From: an uncultured Chloroflexia bacterium
GTDB taxonomy: Bacteria; Chloroflexota; Dehalococcoidia; DSTF01; JALHUB01
Length of the DNA stretch: 64,000 nucleotides
Direction: 5' to 3'
NCBI GenBank assembly: GCA_963842845.1
Contig: CAWJHZ010000007.1
Span: 139,281 to 203,280 of the forward strand
Numbering within the stretch: position 1 is the stretch's first letter; the number at the start of each line of letters is the position of its first letter. Positions 45,373 through 51,723 of the stretch are shown here, piece after piece. The notes beneath the pieces are model-generated. The model saw only the letters and a list, made by a program, of their open reading frames with translations, had not been told where the DNA came from and did no database searches. A program made the position numbers and the translations under genes.

Positions 45373-45657
45373 TGTCGTACGCCCCCTCTCCGGAGGGCTT
45401 GGCGGCTTCAGCCTCCTTCATGCCCGCGCCGGAAGCCTTGTGTCCCGTCTGCGGCCCCTCCCGGGGCGCCACGTCCGGGCTCACGACCTCCCTGTCGCAA
45501 AAGCCGCTCCCTCTCTCGTTTCTTGTCGAATCCTACGTTTTTTCCGGACTCGACCGATGAGCGTATGCCAATGGACATACGTCTTTCTGTTGGAGTATCG
45601 GCTGGGGATAGAGAATGTTAAGGGTGATGTTACTCAATTGTAGTGCGATAATAGCTA

Positions 45658-46179
45658 GTGAATCTGGCGACGGAATGGAGGCGGTTGAACGTGCAGTGCG
45701 CGACGCATCCGGGCGTAGAGACGGAGCTGGCTTGCAGCCGCTGCGGCAAGCCGATCTGCCCGCGCTGCCTGGTGCACACAGACGTCGGGGCGCGCTGTCG
45801 CGAGTGCGCCCATCTGCGTCGCATCCCAACCTACGACGTGGCACTGCCCTATCTCTTGCGGGCGATTGGAACAGCAGTGGTCGGCGGCGTTCTCGGCGGG
45901 ATTCTATGGTGGCTGCTGCTGCCGCGGCGGGGATCGATCATCTCCTATTTCGCGCTGTTCTTCGCAATCGGATTAGGGTACGGGATCGGCGAGGGGGTAA
46001 GCTGGGCTTCGAACCGGAAGCGGGGCGCCGTGCTGCAGGGGACGGCGGCGTGCGGCGTCGTCATAGCTTATCTGCTTCGGAACGTCCTTCAGGGATCCGG
46101 GCTGCTAGCGGCCAGCGACCTCTTCGGCTACGTCACCGTGGGGCTGGCGATCGTGGTGGCCATCGGGCGACTTCGCTAG
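45658..46179 (+). CDS. Membrane protein with an N-terminal Cys/His-rich zinc-ribbon (B-box-like) domain
   Basis: CATHPGVETELACSRCGKPICPRCLVHTDVGARCRECAH is followed by about four TM helices. The start is uncertain and may be the GTG near 45690. Confidence 0.5.
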   Translation: MNLATEWRRLNVQCATHPGVETELACSRCGKPICPRCLVHTDVGARCRECAHLRRIPTYDVALPYLLRAIGTAVVGGVLGGILWWLLLPRRGSIISYFALFFAIGLGYGIGEGVSWASNRKRGAVLQGTAACGVVIAYLLRNVLQGSGLLAASDLFGYVTVGLAIVVAIGRLR

Positions 46180-46246
46180 ATTTCTGGTCGCCAGAAGTGA
46201 AAAGCCGAGGCTTTCCAGTCTCGGCTGCTTTCTTCTCCCCAGGATC

Positions 46247-46519
46247 CTAGCGGAAGACGAGAGAGAGGACGATTATCAGCGTAAGCATGCAGGCCATGAA
46301 AACGAAGATGCGTCGGACTTCGGATCCGACGTAGCTGAAGTCCATCATGCCGGGCACGCGACGCGCTGGCGCCGCCAACGTCGTCGTCGACGTCGACTCG
46401 GCAACTTTCGTTGCGCTGGAGATAGGGGCGACCCGCGCGCGGGCTGCCGCAGGCGGCGGAACGATACGCCTTCGTCCTTTTCGTTTGTCTCGAGGCTTGC
46501 CGGCGGGCTGTCTGCTCAT
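46247..46519 (-). CDS. Small hypothetical tail-anchored membrane protein (90 aa, basic N-terminus)
   Basis: AAGGTGGAG lies 6 nt upstream of the ATG. The N-terminus is basic (KPRDKRKGRRR), and a single C-terminal TM helix (IFVFMACMLTLIIVLSLVF) follows. Confidence 0.5.
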   Translation of the reverse strand: MSRQPAGKPRDKRKGRRRIVPPPAAARARVAPISSATKVAESTSTTTLAAPARRVPGMMDFSYVGSEVRRIFVFMACMLTLIIVLSLVFR

Positions 46520-46617
46520 CGTTTCTCCACCTTGATCAACTTCTGTTGGGATTATACATCGGGAGGAAGCGAGGTTCAATGAAAGCAGCGGCCGACGGAA
46601 TGGACGGATCGATGGTG

Positions 46618-47081
46618 CGCCCGGCGGGATTCGAACCCACGGCCTGTCGCCTGAGGCGACCGCTCTATCCGACCGGAGGGGACCCAGCCGCGCCGGGGCA
46701 CGGGTCTCTGTCGCAAGGTATCGGTCGATGGTGCGCCCGGCGGGATTCGAACCCACGGCCTGTCGCCTGAGGCGACCGCTCTATCCCACCGGAGGGGACC
46801 CAGCCGCGCCGGGGCACGGGCCTCTGTCGCAAGGTATCGGTCGATGGTGCGCCCGGCGGGATTCGAACCCACGGCCTGTCGCCTGAGGCGACCGCTCTAT
46901 CCGACCGGAGGGGACCCAGCCGCGCCGGGGCACGGGTCTCTGTCGCAAGGTATCGGTCGATGGTGCGCCCGGCGGGATTCGAACCCACGGCCTGTCGCCT
47001 GAGGCGACCGCTCTATCCCACCGGAGGGGACCCAGCCGCGCCGGGGCACGGGCCTCTGTCGCAAGGTATCGGTCGATGGTG
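46618..47081 (-). repeat. 4 x 116-bp tandem array of truncated tRNA-Arg-like units
   Basis: Units start at 46618, 46734, 46850 and 46966. Their 3' parts are identical to tRNA-Arg (GGATAGAGCG ... AGGCCGTGGGTTCGAATCCCGCCGGGCGCACCA), and the anticodon arm is replaced by a GTCGCC-TCA-GGCGAC hairpin. The copies alternate A/B/A/B through two SNPs. Confidence 0.85.
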
Positions 47082-47158
47082 CGCCCGGCGGGATTCGAAC
47101 CCACGGCCTCAGCCTCCGCAGGGCTGCGCTCTATCCAGCTGAGCTACGAGCGCCCCAA
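47082..47158 (-). tRNA. tRNA-Arg (anticodon read as GCG)
   Basis: The hand-folded cloverleaf is GCGCTCG / CGGGCGC acceptor (one U.G), GCTC/GAGC D-stem, CAGCC-CTGCGGA-GGCTG anticodon arm, T-loop TTCGAAT, discriminator A, and an encoded CCA. Confidence 0.8.
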
Positions 47159-47212
47159 TCAACGTTCGGGCGACGGACGGTCCGGTCCGTCTCGATTCGC
47201 TTTTCAATGGTG

Positions 47213-47298
47213 CCGAAGGTGGGATTTGAACCCACACGCCCTTGCGGACACTACGCCCTGAACGTAGCGCGTCTGCCATTCCGCCACTTCGGCAGGGC
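47213..47298 (-). tRNA. tRNA-Leu (anticodon CAG), class II with a long variable arm
   Basis: Acceptor GCCGAAG / CTTCGGC, anticodon arm CTACG-TTCAGGG-CGTAG, a long variable arm, T-loop TTCAAAT, and an encoded CCA. Confidence 0.85.
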
Positions 47299-47308
47299 CT
47301 GCATGGTG

Positions 47309-47690
47309 GGCGGTACAGAGCTCGAACCTGTGACCTGTCGCCTCAGGCGACCGCTCACCACCTAGTCTGGTGGGCGGCACAGGCTCGAACCTGTGACCTG
47401 TCGCCTCAGGCGACCGCTCACCACCTAGTCTGGTGGGCGGTACAGGGCTCGAACCTGTGACCTGTCGCCTCAGGCGACCGCTCACCACCTAGTCTGGTGG
47501 GCGGCACAGGCTCGAACCTGTGACCTGTCGCCTCAGGCGACCGCTCACCACCTAGTCTGGTGGGCGGTACAGGGCTCGAACCTGTGACCTGTCGCCTCAG
47601 GCGACCGCTCACCACCTAGTCTGGTGGGCGGTACAGGGCTCGAACCTGTGACCTGTCGCCTCAGGCGACCGCTCACCACCTAGTCTGGTG
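47309..47690 (-). repeat. 6 x 63/64-bp tandem array of truncated tRNA-Val-like units
   Basis: Units start at 47309, 47373, 47436, 47500, 47563 and 47627. Each reads GACTAGGTGGTGAGCG + GTCGCC-TGA-GGCGAC hairpin + AGGTCACAGGTTCGAGCCCTGTACCGCCCACCA, which is positions 44-76 of the adjacent tRNA-Val including CCA. Confidence 0.85.
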
Positions 47691-47767
47691 GGCGGTACAG
47701 GGCTCGAACCTGTGACCTCTTCCGTGTGAAGGAAGCGCTCGTACCAACTGAGCTAACCGCCCGCTCC
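47691..47767 (-). tRNA. tRNA-Val (anticodon CAC)
   Basis: Acceptor GGGCGGT / ACCGCCC, D-arm GCTC-AGTTGGTAC-GAGC, anticodon arm CTTCC-TTCACAC-GGAAG, T-arm ACAGG-TTCGAGC-CCTGT, and an encoded CCA. Confidence 0.85.
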
Positions 47768-47863
47768 CGTTCACGATTCTATCCAACGAGGAGAGGGCCT
47801 GTCAACCGAAAAACCTCGATGACGAGGTTTGGCCGACGAAGGATCCGATTCGGGCTGCGTCGC

Positions 47864-49078
47864 CTAAGACGGGGCTGGCTGCGTCGCCTGGTAGTCGCGC
47901 CAGCGCTCCTCCAGGCGCGGGTCCTTCAGCGTCGCGAGGAGGTAATCGGTAAACTCAGAGCCTTTCACGCCGGTCGGGCGGCCGGTGACGACCATCTTCT
48001 TCTCGAACGTATCGCAGATTTCGAGAGCCATCTCCAGACGGCGGCCGCGGTCGGCGTAACCGATGTGGTTGAGGAGCATGGCGCCGGCGCGGATGAGCCC
48101 GCTAGGGTCGGCGTATTCCACACGCCCCTCTTCGACCATGCGGGGTGCGCTGCCGTGAATCGCCTCGAACATCGCGTAGTGGCGGCCGATGTTGGCACTG
48201 CCGGCCGTGCCGACGCCACCCTGAAGCTCGGCGGCCTCGTCGGTCAGGATGTCGCCGTAAAGGTTGGGCAGGACGACGACGCGGAAGTGGGAGCGGCGCT
48301 TGGGGTCGACGAGCTTGGCCGGGATTATGTCAATATACCAGTCGTCCCACTCGATTTCGGGATAATTGGTGGCGATGCTCCTGGCCGTCTCCAGGAACTT
48401 GCCGTCGGTGGTCTTGATGACGTTGGCCTTAGTGACGACGGTGACCCGCTTCTTGTCGTGCTTGCGAGCGTAGTCGAAGGCCATCTCGATGATGCGCTCG
48501 CTGCCCTGGCTGGTGACCGCCGTGAAGTCGAAAGCGAGGTCCTCGGTGACGTGGATGCCGCGGCTGCCCATGACGTAGGCGCCCTCGGTGTTCTCGCGGA
48601 AGAACGTCCAGTCGATGCCCTGCGCCGGAATCTTGACGGGGCGAACGTTGGCGAACAGGTCGAGGGCGCGGCGCATGGCGACGTTGGCGCTCTCTATGTT
48701 GGGCCAGGGATCGCCGGCGCGAGGGGTCGTCGTCGGCGCTTTGAGGATGACGTGGCACTGCTTGAGCTCGTCGAGAACGTCGTCAGGGATGGCCTTGAGC
48801 TGAGCGGCGCGGTTTTCGATGGTGAGGCCGTCGATTGTCTTGAAGACAATGTCGCCGCGCTCCACCTCGGGCGCGAGGATGTACTCCAGGACGCGCTGCG
48901 ATTCGCGCGAGATGTAGGGTCCAATGCCGTCGCCGCCGCAGACGCCGATGACAAGCGGTCGGAGCGAGGAGTAGTCGGCCCAGCCGTTGTCGGCCTTCAT
49001 GCGCTCGACGCGCGTCAGTTGCTCTTCGACGAGGGCTCCGAAGTGCTGTTTTGCTCGTTCGACGGCTTCTCTATCCAT
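47864..49078 (-). CDS. icd: Isocitrate dehydrogenase (isocitrate/isopropylmalate dehydrogenase family)
   Basis: A 404-aa protein with LPNLYGDILTD and GSAPRM motifs characteristic of the beta-decarboxylating dehydrogenase family. Confidence 0.75.
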   Translation of the reverse strand: MDREAVERAKQHFGALVEEQLTRVERMKADNGWADYSSLRPLVIGVCGGDGIGPYISRESQRVLEYILAPEVERGDIVFKTIDGLTIENRAAQLKAIPDDVLDELKQCHVILKAPTTTPRAGDPWPNIESANVAMRRALDLFANVRPVKIPAQGIDWTFFRENTEGAYVMGSRGIHVTEDLAFDFTAVTSQGSERIIEMAFDYARKHDKKRVTVVTKANVIKTTDGKFLETARSIATNYPEIEWDDWYIDIIPAKLVDPKRRSHFRVVVLPNLYGDILTDEAAELQGGVGTAGSANIGRHYAMFEAIHGSAPRMVEEGRVEYADPSGLIRAGAMLLNHIGYADRGRRLEMALEICDTFEKKMVVTGRPTGVKGSEFTDYLLATLKDPRLEERWRDYQATQPAPS

Positions 49079-49154
49079 GTGTCCCCTATCCTAGCACGAC
49101 TTCCCGTGAAAAGACCGCAAGCCTCCTAAGCTGACCGGGGCGGAAGAGGCGAAT

Positions 49155-49230
49155 TGGTGGCAGCGGAGGGATTTGAACCCCCGACCAAGGGCTTATGAGT
49201 CCCCTGCTCTACCGACTGAGCTACGCTGCC
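49155..49230 (-). tRNA. tRNA with a CAU anticodon (elongator Met, or Ile2/lysidine type)
   Basis: Acceptor GGCAGCG / CGCTGCC with a G1-C72 pair, so it is not an initiator. Anticodon loop CTCATAA. The anticodon stem and variable loop (GAGCAGGGGACTCATAAGCCCTTGGTCG) resemble tRNA-Ile2. Confidence 0.75.
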
Positions 49231-49323
49231 ACACCTTCGGCGAGTGCGCTGCCAACGAATAACGCTAACGGCGAATCGATGATAGCAAAGGCTTTCTGAG
49301 GGTGTCAAACCCGCGGAATCTGA

Positions 49324-49740
49324 TCAGACTGCCGGCGTCACCTCCGACGTGCAGTATGCGCAGCGACGCGCTTCGGCTGGTATGTTACTCAAGCACTCCG
49401 GGCATTTGCGGACTGTCGGGTCGGGCGGCGGCTCTTTTCGCGAGCGCGCAAGATAAGCGTTCAGCGGCACGACGATCAGGAAGAAGACCACCGCGCCTAT
49501 CATCACAAAGGTGATCGTTTTGTTGATGAAGTCGCCGTAGCGGAAGGTGCTGTTGTGGACCGTGAAGGCCAGGACGGAGAAGTCCTGCTGGCCACCGATG
49601 GCCGCGATCAGCGGCGTCACGAAGTCCTGGACCAACGCCGTGACCACCGCGCCGAACGCTGCGCCGATCACGACCGCGATGGCAAGATCGACTACGTTGC
49701 CCCTGAGCAAGAATGCCTTGAAGTCGTTGATGAGTTTCAT
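49324..49740 (-). CDS. mscL: Large-conductance mechanosensitive channel MscL with a C-terminal zinc-ribbon extension
   Basis: MKLINDFKAFLLRGNVVDLAIAVVIGAAFG is the MscL TM1, and a C-terminal CPEC...CAYC motif follows. Confidence 0.85.
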   Translation of the reverse strand: MKLINDFKAFLLRGNVVDLAIAVVIGAAFGAVVTALVQDFVTPLIAAIGGQQDFSVLAFTVHNSTFRYGDFINKTITFVMIGAVVFFLIVVPLNAYLARSRKEPPPDPTVRKCPECLSNIPAEARRCAYCTSEVTPAV

Positions 49741-49863: not shown

Positions 49864-51723
49864 ATGAGTATACCAATGATCGCGACCAAGCAACCCTTGA
49901 TCGAGCGCGTAGGCGCGCTGCCGAACAAGCCCGGCGTCTACATCTTCCGCAACGAAGAGGGACGCGTCATTTACGTCGGCAAGGCGGCGGCGCTACGGAA
50001 TCGCGTGCGCTCGTACTTCGGCTCGCCGCGGAGCATGGAGCCGAAGGTGCGGGCGCTGGCCTCGAGCATCGCCGATTTCGATTACATCGTCACGAACACG
50101 GCGCAGGAGGCGCTGCACCTGGAGGCGACGCTGGTCAAGCGGCATCAGCCCGTCTTCAACGTGCGCCTGAAGGACGACAAGCACTACCCGTACCTGAAGA
50201 TCGACGTGCAGAACAATTGGCCGCGCGTTGAGATTACGCGGCGGATCGAAAACGACGGCGGACGCTATTTCGGGCCGTACGCCAGCGCCAGCTCGGTGCG
50301 CCGGACGCTCGACGTAGTGAAGCGGCTCTTCCCCTGGCGGCCGTGCACCGAGGAGGTGACCGGCGACCGGCCCCGGCCCTGCCTGGACTTCTTCATCGGC
50401 CGCTGCATTGCGCCCTGCTCCGGCGCCTGCTCGGAGGGGGAGTACGACGAGGTGATCCGGCAGGTCATCCTCTTCCTCGAAGGGCGCACGGAGAACGTGC
50501 TACGGGCGCTGCGGGCGCAGATGGACGAGGCGTCGCGGAACATGCAGTACGAGCGCGCGGCGATCCTGCGGGACCAGATCCACGCTATCGAAAACGTTTC
50601 GGAGGCCCAGGTGACAGCGTATGCGCGGCCGACGGACGAAGACGTCTTCGGTCTGGCGCGGTCGGACGGCGAGGCGGTAGCGCAGGTGCTGTTCGTCCGC
50701 GGGACGAAGATGATCGGCGGCGATCACTTCCCGCTGGACGGCGCGAAGGGCGAGCCCGACGCGGAGGTGATGAACGGCTTCCTCAAGCAGTTCTACGAGT
50801 CGTCGACATACGTCCCGCGCACGGTCCTGCTGCCGCTGGAGATACCAGAGACGGCGGAGATCGAGGACTGGCTGTCGGAGCGACGCGGTGGTCGCGTGAA
50901 GCTGGTGACGCCGAGGCGCGGCAACAAGCGCCGTCTGATTGCGATGGCGACGGACAACGCCCGCGAGGCGCTCGATGTGGCGCGGTTGCTCTGGTTGACG
51001 GATACCGGCAAGACGCGGCAGGCGCTGGAGGAACTCCAGGAGGAGCTCAACCTGCCTGCCCTGCCGAATCGCATCGAGTGCTACGACATCTCCGATATCA
51101 TGGGCGCGCATCCGGTCGGCAGCATGGTCGTCTTCATCGGCGGGCGGCCGCGGCGCGCGGAGTACCGTCGCTTCCGGATCAAGAGCGTCGAAGGCGCGAA
51201 CGACGTGGCGATGATGGCGGAGGTGCTGCGGCGTCGCTTCAAGCGGGCGGCCCAGGCGGTAGAGGCGCAGGAGTCGGCGCAGGCGGAAGGCTGGGGCGCA
51301 CTGCCGGACCTGTTAATCGTCGACGGCGGCAAGCCACAGCTCAACGCTGCGCTCGACGTGCTGCGGGAGGCGGGCGCGCCGTTCATTCCGGCCGCCGGGC
51401 TGGCGAAACAACAGGAAGAGCTTTATGTGAAGGACGTTTCGGAGCCGATCGTGCTGTCGCGCACGTCGCAGGCGCTCTACCTGCTGCAACGCGTCCGCGA
51501 CGAGGCGCATCGGTTTGCGATCACGTACCATCGCAATGTGCGACAGAAGGCCGGGACGCGCTCGGTGCTCGACGCAATACCGGGCGTGGGACCGAAGCGC
51601 AAGCGGGCACTGCTGCGGAAGTTCGGCTCGGTGCGGGAGATACGAGAGGCAAGCGTCGACGAGATTGCGTCGACGGTTGGGTTCACGCGGTCGCTGGCAG
51701 AGCGGGTGAAGGAGTACCTCTAG
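49864..51723 (+). CDS. uvrC: Excinuclease ABC subunit C
   Basis: The N-terminus is a GIY-YIG domain (GVYIFRNEEGRVIYVGKA). A UvrBC-interaction region, an RNase-H-like endonuclease domain and a C-terminal HhH follow. Confidence 0.9.
   Translation: MSIPMIATKQPLIERVGALPNKPGVYIFRNEEGRVIYVGKAAALRNRVRSYFGSPRSMEPKVRALASSIADFDYIVTNTAQEALHLEATLVKRHQPVFNVRLKDDKHYPYLKIDVQNNWPRVEITRRIENDGGRYFGPYASASSVRRTLDVVKRLFPWRPCTEEVTGDRPRPCLDFFIGRCIAPCSGACSEGEYDEVIRQVILFLEGRTENVLRALRAQMDEASRNMQYERAAILRDQIHAIENVSEAQVTAYARPTDEDVFGLARSDGEAVAQVLFVRGTKMIGGDHFPLDGAKGEPDAEVMNGFLKQFYESSTYVPRTVLLPLEIPETAEIEDWLSERRGGRVKLVTPRRGNKRRLIAMATDNAREALDVARLLWLTDTGKTRQALEELQEELNLPALPNRIECYDISDIMGAHPVGSMVVFIGGRPRRAEYRRFRIKSVEGANDVAMMAEVLRRRFKRAAQAVEAQESAQAEGWGALPDLLIVDGGKPQLNAALDVLREAGAPFIPAAGLAKQQEELYVKDVSEPIVLSRTSQALYLLQRVRDEAHRFAITYHRNVRQKAGTRSVLDAIPGVGPKRKRALLRKFGSVREIREASVDEIASTVGFTRSLAERVKEYL

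Follow-up and report, generated by a model that had tools for sequence, protein, structure and literature searches.

The 64,000-nt stretch of DNA analyzed here (the window), from contig CAWJHZ010000007.1 of an uncultured Chloroflexia bacterium, carries on its minus strand a tRNA operon in which two intact tRNA genes, tRNA-Val(CAC) and tRNA-Arg(GCG), are each followed directly by a tandem array of tRNA-like units (Table 1). We consider these arrays to be, with high likelihood, remnants of a small element that is embedded in tRNA genes and encodes a minimal GIY-YIG nuclease. ARAGORN and Rfam agreed on the three bona fide tRNAs (Val, Leu and Arg) that an earlier reading of this sequence, here called the original prediction, had named. 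Tandem Repeats Finder resolved the arrays as a 64-nt period repeated 6.5 times (97% matches, 47304-47718) and a 116-nt period repeated 4.3 times (98% matches, 46609-47109). Each Val unit consists of GACTAGG, a D-loop remnant (TGGTGAGCG) and a hairpin, followed by the variable loop, T-arm, acceptor 3' strand and CCA of the tRNA. In each Arg unit, the hairpin and the same 3' elements are preceded by a 58-nt spacer and GGATAGAGCG; the spacer may be a tRNA 5' half that has degenerated and in which the D-loop has expanded.

Alignment of the units confirmed that the anticodon arm has been exchanged for one common palindrome, while the T-arm, acceptor 3' strand and CCA are retained. The palindrome, GTCGCC-TSA-GGCGAC (S is G or C), was present in all ten units and stands exactly for nt 27 to 43 of the parent tRNA, with the D-stem sequence GAGCG on one side and the variable-loop sequence AGGYC on the other. 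The sequence GTCGCCTSAGGCGAC occurred ten times in the window, always within the arrays, compared with 0.04 occurrences expected from shuffled sequences. The ten units are thus all pseudo-tRNAs, adjoining an intact parent tRNA and carrying the hairpin in place of nt 27 to 43, and the same architecture was found at approximately 50 genome loci. The perfect identity to the parent that had been claimed for the units holds for the 3' parts of the Arg units (33 of 33 nt) and not for all of the Val units (28 to 33 of 33 nt): V3 and V5 have lost one C of the T-loop, leaving 6 nt, and carry an A>G change, and V6 carries a C>T change. Likewise, the proposed strict alternation of two sequence variants describes the Arg array, which is ordered A-B-A-B by two single-nucleotide polymorphisms (SNPs), whereas the order in the Val array is A-A-B-A-B-A'.

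Table 1. Features of the tRNA operon and the two arrays in the window
Feature	Coordinates	Strand	Remarks
Sigma-70-type promoter, TTGACA-18 nt-TAGAAT	47776..47805	-	11/12 consensus matches; heads the tRNA operon and both arrays
tRNA-Val(CAC), intact	47686..47762	-	Parent of the first array; ARAGORN and Rfam tRNA model, 66.2 bits
Six Val units without ORF, 63/64 nt	47304..47685	-	Directly after tRNA-Val
Val units V1, V2, V3	47622-47685, 47558-47621, 47495-47557	-	
Val units V4, V5, V6	47431-47494, 47368-47430, 47304-47367	-	
Val-unit hairpins	47337-47351, 47400-47414, 47464-47478, 47527-47541, 47591-47605, 47655-47669	+ coordinates	TGA loop on the tRNA strand
tRNA-Leu(CAG), intact	47208..47293	-	Without units; ARAGORN and Rfam
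tRNA-Arg(GCG), intact	47077..47153	-	Parent of the second array; ARAGORN and Rfam, 67.2 bits
Four Arg units without ORF, 116 nt each	46613..47076	-	Directly after tRNA-Arg
Arg units R1, R2, R3, R4	46961-47076, 46845-46960, 46729-46844, 46613-46728	-	
Arg-unit hairpins	46646-46660, 46762-46776, 46878-46892, 46994-47008	+ coordinates	TCA loop on the tRNA strand
Promoter-like site, TTGAAC-17 nt-TATAAT	46551..46579	-	For a downstream small ORF; end of the tRNA/array transcription unit

In a scan of one genome for each bacterial and archaeal species, the hairpin in its context (GCR-GTCGCCTSAGGCGAC-RG) was found at 111 loci, against a chance expectation of approximately 9 (our own estimate, from approximately 37 bits over 1.2e12 positions). 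At about half of these loci, a hairpin-bearing tRNA fragment lay no more than 700 nt from an intact tRNA-Val, Ile, Ala, Arg or Pro. The original prediction had proposed a search beyond the window, and there the same hairpin did recur at the same tRNA position in many isotypes and phyla, with the element present in Chloroflexota, Patescibacteria, Planctomycetota, Elusimicrobia and others. The copies obeyed a positional rule. Those downstream of a tRNA shared 28 to 33 of 30 to 33 nt of its 3' part and little of its 5' part beyond the D-stem, while those upstream shared 24 to 27 of 28 nt of its 5' part, followed only by the variable loop and the 5' strand of the T-stem. The units of the window are of the downstream type.

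Clustering of all open reading frames (ORFs) located within 1.5 kb of the hairpins revealed that the commonest neighbor, at 21 loci, is a GIY-YIG ORF of approximately 80 aa; with a profile search the total came to approximately 22 loci, including pseudogenes. The protein comprises the GIY-YIG catalytic domain alone (Pfam PF01541, E = 7e-17 to 1.5e-13), and the closest solved structures are those of the UPF0213 proteins BH0048 and EF2693 (PDB 1zg2 and 1ywl; E = 3e-13 and 3e-12), followed by SLX1, a eukaryotic structure-specific endonuclease (1e-5). On the strength of these matches, the element protein is predicted to be a GIY-YIG nuclease of the UPF0213/SLX1 clade.

The ORF and the pseudo-tRNA are interlocked. 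In the downstream type, the ORF begins 0 to 25 nt past the 3' end of the intact tRNA, and its last 15 or so codons lie in a degenerate tRNA 5' half, in which the conserved G-x-G-R codons contain the acceptor 5' strand and an expanded D-arm is common. At L074, L082, L084, L086 and L141 the ORF ends in ...GCG GTC GCC TGA, such that the stop codon is the loop of the hairpin. After the stop come the second arm of the hairpin, the variable loop, the T-arm and the acceptor 3' strand, identical to those of the parent. In the mirror type, a series made up of tRNA 5' half, hairpin, variable loop and T-stem 5' strand leads into the ATG, and the end of the ORF lies within the intact tRNA, in its 5' half. 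Some elements are located in the tRNA-Ile/tRNA-Ala spacer of rRNA operons. One such spacer (L113:60-760) contains, in order, tRNA-Ile, a tRNA-Ala 5' fragment, the ORF (290-538), a full tRNA-Ile pseudo-copy with the hairpin (501-589, labeled 'tRNA-Glu(ttc)' by ARAGORN), tRNA-Ala and 23S rRNA. At another locus, on the minus strand of L094 (2280-2800), a 3' fragment with a genuine Val anticodon arm (Rfam partial tRNA, 32.1 bits) comes after tRNA-Val(tac). It precedes a GIY-YIG ORF of the same family whose terminal palindrome is not the usual one but CATGCC-TAG-GCATG; here too the loop supplies the stop codon.

In order to sample the family independently of the hairpin, we selected 80 metagenomic loci by two N-terminal peptide motifs of the protein. 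The motifs were taken from a 4-sequence subset, the 13-sequence protein alignment being too diverse for back-translation, and 212 of the 449 candidate stretches were confirmed relatives. Sixty-three of the 80 ORFs directly adjoined a tRNA on the same strand. In approximately 48 cases the 3' end of the ORF overlapped the 5' half of a tRNA, whose U8-A9-G10 TAG often served as the stop codon; a few of the overlapped 'tRNAs' are hairpin-bearing pseudo-copies that ARAGORN labels Ser(tga) or Glu(ttc). Twenty-two ORFs came after a tRNA, many of them ending in a hairpin-bearing pseudo-tRNA. Among 42 distinct loci with the order ORF-then-tRNA, 24 had an upstream duplicate of nt 1 to 26 of that tRNA followed by the hairpin and the parent's variable loop and T-stem 5' strand. 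A hairpin was adjacent to the ORF at 37 of 70 distinct loci, compared with a background of 12 matches in 253 kb. The minimal SLX1-type GIY-YIG gene is thus superimposed on a tRNA or pseudo-tRNA in its 5' half, with its stop often provided by U8-A9-G10 or by the hairpin loop.

In this sample, the stem GTCGCC/GGCGAC was found in 38 of 42 hairpin occurrences, combined with 17 different loops of 2 to 5 nt. An invariant stem with a free loop fits sequence-specific recognition of the folded hairpin; it speaks against a stem with a purely structural role in RNA, for which covariation would be expected, and against a duplex palindrome read with fixed spacing. The provision of a stop codon by the loop explains the hairpin only in part: the stop often falls earlier, in the tRNA's TAG, and the loops vary, so that coding constraint does not account for the invariant stem. 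The commonest arrangement (L115-L135, L148, L152, L183 and others) is an ORF that overlaps a real tRNA and stops at U8-A9-G10 (the TAG of TAGCTCAG). Cleavage by RNase P at tRNA +1 would thus separate the stop codon from the ORF, and the resulting non-stop mRNA could act as a built-in limit on expression of the nuclease.

Presence/absence polymorphism, pseudogenes and a distribution over multiple isotypes were observed in the family. On the organization of its sequences, the family is most likely a small selfish element resident at tRNA genes, of which the intact copy is an ORF between a tRNA and a disabled duplicate of it, with GTCGCC-loop-GGCGAC in place of the duplicate's anticodon arm (nt 27 to 43). 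Decay of the element was observed at one orthologous tRNA-Val(GAC) site with identical flanks in three Dehalococcoidia: the ORF is intact in L110 and frameshifted in L080, and in L060 there is a unit without an ORF (...GTTAGAGCG, hairpin and 3' part) of the type found in the window. What has been observed directly is the type of element, its decay into units without an ORF and its presence/absence polymorphism. Close relatives of the window were also informative. A Dehalococcoidia MAG (SPRUCE 654; L044) is 86 to 91% identical to the window over approximately 6.7 kb and has the same operon, with one Val unit (TCA loop, slightly different spacer) and no Arg unit. In L003, the same Val-Leu-Arg operon has no Val units, and an ORF-less 5' Arg fragment with the hairpin lies upstream of tRNA-Arg. 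Since close relatives differ in their units (one and none in L044, compared with six and four here), the arrays of the window are lineage-specific expansions. On its similarity to these relatives, the window most likely derives from a member of the Dehalococcoidia. Other ORF-less tandem arrays occur at L077 (three units of approximately 96 nt, 93% matches) and L099 (two units). No homolog of the mini GIY-YIG protein was detected in the window (best tblastn E = 0.16; no hmmsearch hit), and because no GIY-YIG ORF lies between a parent tRNA and a pseudo-tRNA, the window holds remnants of the element rather than a complete one.

Taken together, these observations make it highly probable that both arrays are tandemly amplified, ORF-less remnants of the tRNA-embedded mini GIY-YIG element. 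Elements at the tRNA-Val and tRNA-Arg of this lineage would have lost their ORFs by deletion, leaving the D-loop remnant, hairpin and 3' part directly behind the parent tRNA. Remnant and parent would then have formed a direct repeat of 33 to 49 nt, of which the 33-nt 3' part is duplicated, and unequal recombination or replication slippage, possibly stimulated by a nuclease cut, would have raised the copies to six Val and four Arg units; the alternating SNPs suggest that amplification proceeded partly by two-unit blocks. Stimulation by the nuclease is a plausible route by analogy. The arrays themselves are probably inert and have no function of their own. Of the readings offered in the original prediction, the footprint of a palindrome-leaving element came closest, with the difference that the element is a mini GIY-YIG gene and not a RAYT/IS200-type transposase.

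Several points weigh against this account. A profile search detected no remnant of the ORF inside the units of the window, so that deletion of the ORF in this lineage is deduced from the relatives, and the 58-nt Arg spacer had no match to an ORF or other locus among the loci fetched. The hairpins are perfect in all ten units of the window and in all three units of the older L077 array, with SNPs located elsewhere in the units; the remnants could thus still be under some constraint and not be fully inert, although the statistics are weak (for L077, approximately three changes expected and none seen). The window covers 64 kb of the genome, and an active copy of the element may lie elsewhere in it. 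The mobility of the element, its mode of insertion and the nuclease activity are predictions.

The last points bear on the alternative that the units are non-autonomous copies that are still active, comparable to miniature inverted-repeat transposable elements (MITEs), with a GIY-YIG nuclease encoded elsewhere cutting the hairpin or pseudo-tRNA and repair resizing the arrays in trans. There is a precedent in SegB, which drives tandem amplification of a tRNA-segB unit via double-strand breaks and homologous recombination, also in trans (PMC13096335). The recurrence of ORF-less arrays in other genomes, the invariant stem with variable loops, and the perfect hairpins in arrays with SNPs elsewhere also speak for this alternative. 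However, the 64-kb window contains no mini nuclease gene, the hairpin statistics are those given above, and unequal crossing-over between 33-nt repeats suffices for amplification without a nuclease. We therefore regard this alternative as unlikely, while giving it more weight than any of those that follow.

Another idea, which we put forward as speculative and improbable, is that the hairpin is a protein-binding handle for an SLX1-like nuclease devoid of a DNA-binding domain, that the tRNA-matching flanks guide it, and that the arrays are active, non-autonomous guide and handle copies. A transcribed or single-stranded pseudo-tRNA would pair with the parent tRNA gene, and the anticodon-arm region, left unpaired, would create a branched substrate for a structure-specific cut. 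If true, this would constitute a nucleic-acid-guided homing system aimed at tRNA genes.

Among the readings offered in the original prediction was a function at the level of RNA, in which the units are tRNA-like small RNAs freed by RNase P or Z, or decoys for factors or toxins that recognize the T-arm and CCA. The arrays do lie in a strongly promoted tRNA operon, and we found no terminator-like site on the minus strand inside them; because there is a single promoter and no terminator, the units are probably cotranscribed with the tRNAs. In most units the T-arm, acceptor 3' strand and CCA are those of the parent, and the minimum-free-energy fold of a Val unit keeps both the T-arm and the hairpin. 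However, the helix that was proposed to close the molecule, between a 5' segment and the acceptor 3' strand, was at chance level: in ten ORF-less units from nine loci, representing the window and eight others, it was no longer than with shuffled spacers (P 0.117-0.99, hence P >= 0.117 throughout). Folding of single units also revealed unremarkable stability (z = -1.7 for the Val unit and +0.5 for the Arg unit). The T-loops of V3 and V5 are damaged, at 6 nt, and copy number varies between relatives, with one and no units in the close relative L044 and none of this type in L003. At the tRNA-Val(GAC) site, a unit of this kind is demonstrably the decayed form of an ORF-bearing element. No Rfam family matched the units, the best near-match being Tymo_tRNA-like at 23.7 bits, below the gathering score of 40. 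A closed, anticodon-less tRNA-like molecule is therefore unsupported, and we hold a small-RNA or decoy function to be improbable.

The units are also not canonical tRNA genes or pseudogenes, as they have neither an acceptor 5' strand nor an anticodon arm and fall below the Rfam RF00005 threshold. In the region 45500-49500 (E <= 1), Rfam called four true tRNAs and none of the units; a nearby tRNA-Met (49155-49230, minus strand) is without units. ARAGORN made two 95-nt 'tRNA-Arg(ccg)' calls, at 46729-46823 and 46961-47055 on the minus strand, inside R3 and R1; R2 and R4 escaped this call, and they deviate by a single base in the region of the false anticodon. These calls are an example of how such remnants inflate tRNA gene counts.

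Two further explanations are very improbable. According to the first, the units are att-type scars of repeated integration and excision by a tyrosine integrase at tRNA 3' ends. The direct repeats do hold the 3' part of a tRNA immediately downstream of the intact gene, as an attR would (PMC9897764 describes the general phenomenon). However, there is neither an island nor a recombinase. No integrase lies within approximately 5 kb, and a Pfam search of 10 flanking ORFs found no recombinase, in agreement with the original prediction. Its further argument from the absence of cargo failed, as related genomes keep a GIY-YIG cargo at the same kind of site. Unlike att duplications, the repeat runs through the substituted anticodon arm into the D-arm; the recurrent neighbor of the hairpin is a GIY-YIG gene, not an integrase; and mirror-image 5' fragments upstream of tRNAs are not expected from integration at 3' ends. 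The second explanation is that the copy numbers are an assembly artifact in which repeats were mis-expanded. The source is probably a metagenome-assembled genome, in which tandem repeats are error-prone, but the units bear ordered SNP variants, assemblers usually collapse repeats and rarely expand them, and units were found independently, singly or in multiples, in L044, L060, L077 and L099; the unit itself is real whatever its copy number. A CRISPR array was rejected, as it had been in the original prediction, because whole units repeat and the segments between hairpins are identical within each array. A REP/RAYT system was not found either, the hairpin being confined to the arrays within the 64 kb and no Y1 transposase being present in the flanking ORFs. 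The neighbors of the arrays are housekeeping genes, encoding a PHP-domain protein, a signal peptidase, an isocitrate/isopropylmalate dehydrogenase, MscL and a canonical UvrC. The UvrC gene (49864-51723, plus strand, approximately 2 kb from the arrays) has a GIY-YIG domain of its own; it is an ordinary repair gene and has no relation to the mini nuclease.

The hairpin contexts found in the genome scan fall into four groups, namely, tRNA fragments, an element of approximately 42 nt (CCCGCCT...GGCGGGCAGG) with the hairpin at its apex, REP-like repeats in Ruminococcus, and scattered matches in coding sequences. The matches do not make up one family, as the Ruminococcus repeats are separate and approximately 30 matches in coding sequences look like chance. 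Viral contigs contained no exact match to the hairpin in its context, and no Rfam family covers the pseudo-tRNA or hairpin modules. The Ruminococcus loci, all from MAG CAYSKU01 (L009, L012, L030, L042, L051, L061, L063, L075, L076, L078, L089, L106 and L108), belong to a dense, genome-specific REP-like family with one or several GC hairpins that share the loop CTGAG and differ in their stems; the hairpins are followed by GGCAKKCATCGGCG...GAAAGATATCCCACGACAAT, often in tandem, and no GIY-YIG gene is nearby. The 42-nt element, CCCGCCTGCA-GTCGCCTGAGGCGAC-AGCYGATGGCGGGCAGG, is recurrent in Patescibacteria and in MAGs labeled Gammaproteobacteria (L094:4790-4884, minus strand; L024, L026, L032, L047, L048, L049, L052, L062, L090 and L105; with a variant apex in L055). 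In L094 and L032 it is placed within the T-loop of a partial tRNA copy, between TTC and GAAT. Nuclease loci linked to tRNA-Gln (L158, L166, L167 and L172) have the GTCGCC hairpin followed by a CCCGCC...GGCGGG hairpin, and the two modules seem to travel together. Pseudo-tRNA copies often have extra GC-rich hairpins in the D-loop (TCCGCC-AGA-GGCGGA, TCAGCC-TCC-GGCTGA and CCAGCCAG-ACC-CTGGCTGG), as in the upstream pseudo-tRNAs of L001, L013, L018, L037, L116, L132 and L144 and in L077:2021-2346; even AT-rich genomes have such hairpins.

The main interest thus lies less in the arrays than in the widespread and coherent element family that they exposed. If confirmed, the family would provide a biological role, that of a selfish resident of tRNA genes, for the large protein family of UPF0213 and its relatives, and would explain tRNA-like fragments that mislead annotation, such as 'tRNA-Ser(tga)', 'tRNA-Glu(ttc)' and the 95-nt 'tRNA-Arg(ccg)'. 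It would also pose the question of how an 80-aa nuclease without a DNA-binding domain locates tRNA genes of many isotypes.

Fragments of tRNA genes in prokaryotes have been ascribed to CRISPR activity or to integrative elements (PMC9897764). The element described here resembles the attL and attR fragments of the latter in that a partial tRNA copy stands beside an intact tRNA, the tRNA is functional after insertion and tRNA finders are confused (PMC9897764). It differs in having no integrase and a cargo of a single ORF of approximately 250 nt or nothing, and in a duplicate that spans nearly the whole tRNA with its anticodon arm swapped and that occurs on both the 5' and 3' sides. The units of the window also resemble solo long terminal repeats, MITEs and REP sequences or their mosaic elements (BIMEs), which likewise lack genes, preserve the terminal or structural sequences of their element, are palindromic and can undergo tandem amplification. 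Unlike REP and BIME sequences, the hairpin of the window occurs only within tRNA-derived units and is not dispersed, and no RAYT/IS200-type gene is implicated. A T-arm and acceptor 3' strand with CCA combined with a substituted anticodon region are likewise features of the tRNA-like domain of tmRNA, the bacterial Y RNA YrlA and viral tRNA-like structures. In these RNAs the closing acceptor helix is conserved, and they are conserved as genes, whereas the window units have a closing helix no better than chance and are not conserved between relatives.

The closest relatives of the protein are the UPF0213 and prokaryotic Slx1-like proteins, for which a stand-alone catalytic domain was described in a 2006 survey (PMC1564403). 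The element protein is likewise a stand-alone catalytic domain and has its best sequence matches in that clade, but the survey is silent on tRNA embedding, ORF/tRNA overlap and the hairpin (PMC1564403), and the searchable literature assigns the clade no bacterial role. In the literature covered, which excluded subscription-only papers, no account was found of a mini GIY-YIG gene embedded at a tRNA together with a pseudo-tRNA whose anticodon arm is swapped; the family is apparently both widespread and undescribed.

As a system, the nearest parallel is SegB, a free-standing GIY-YIG homing endonuclease of the tRNA gene cluster of T-even phages (PMC2330249, PMC13096335), with the recombination-dependent tandem amplification of the tRNA-segB unit, able to act in trans, noted above (PMC13096335). 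SegB is phage-borne and has a DNA-binding extension, whereas the element protein is a bare catalytic domain of approximately 80 aa in cellular genomes, and the window holds remnants only, the nuclease gene being absent. In the literature covered, SegB was not reported to leave behind a pseudo-tRNA in which a conserved hairpin takes the place of the anticodon arm. The two systems nevertheless have in common a GIY-YIG gene that lies among tRNA genes and whose 3' end shows microhomology with a tRNA 5' end. Selfish inheritance is a further parallel, probable for the element, as is the tandem amplification of units that contain tRNA sequence, which depends on the nuclease in SegB and possibly does so here.

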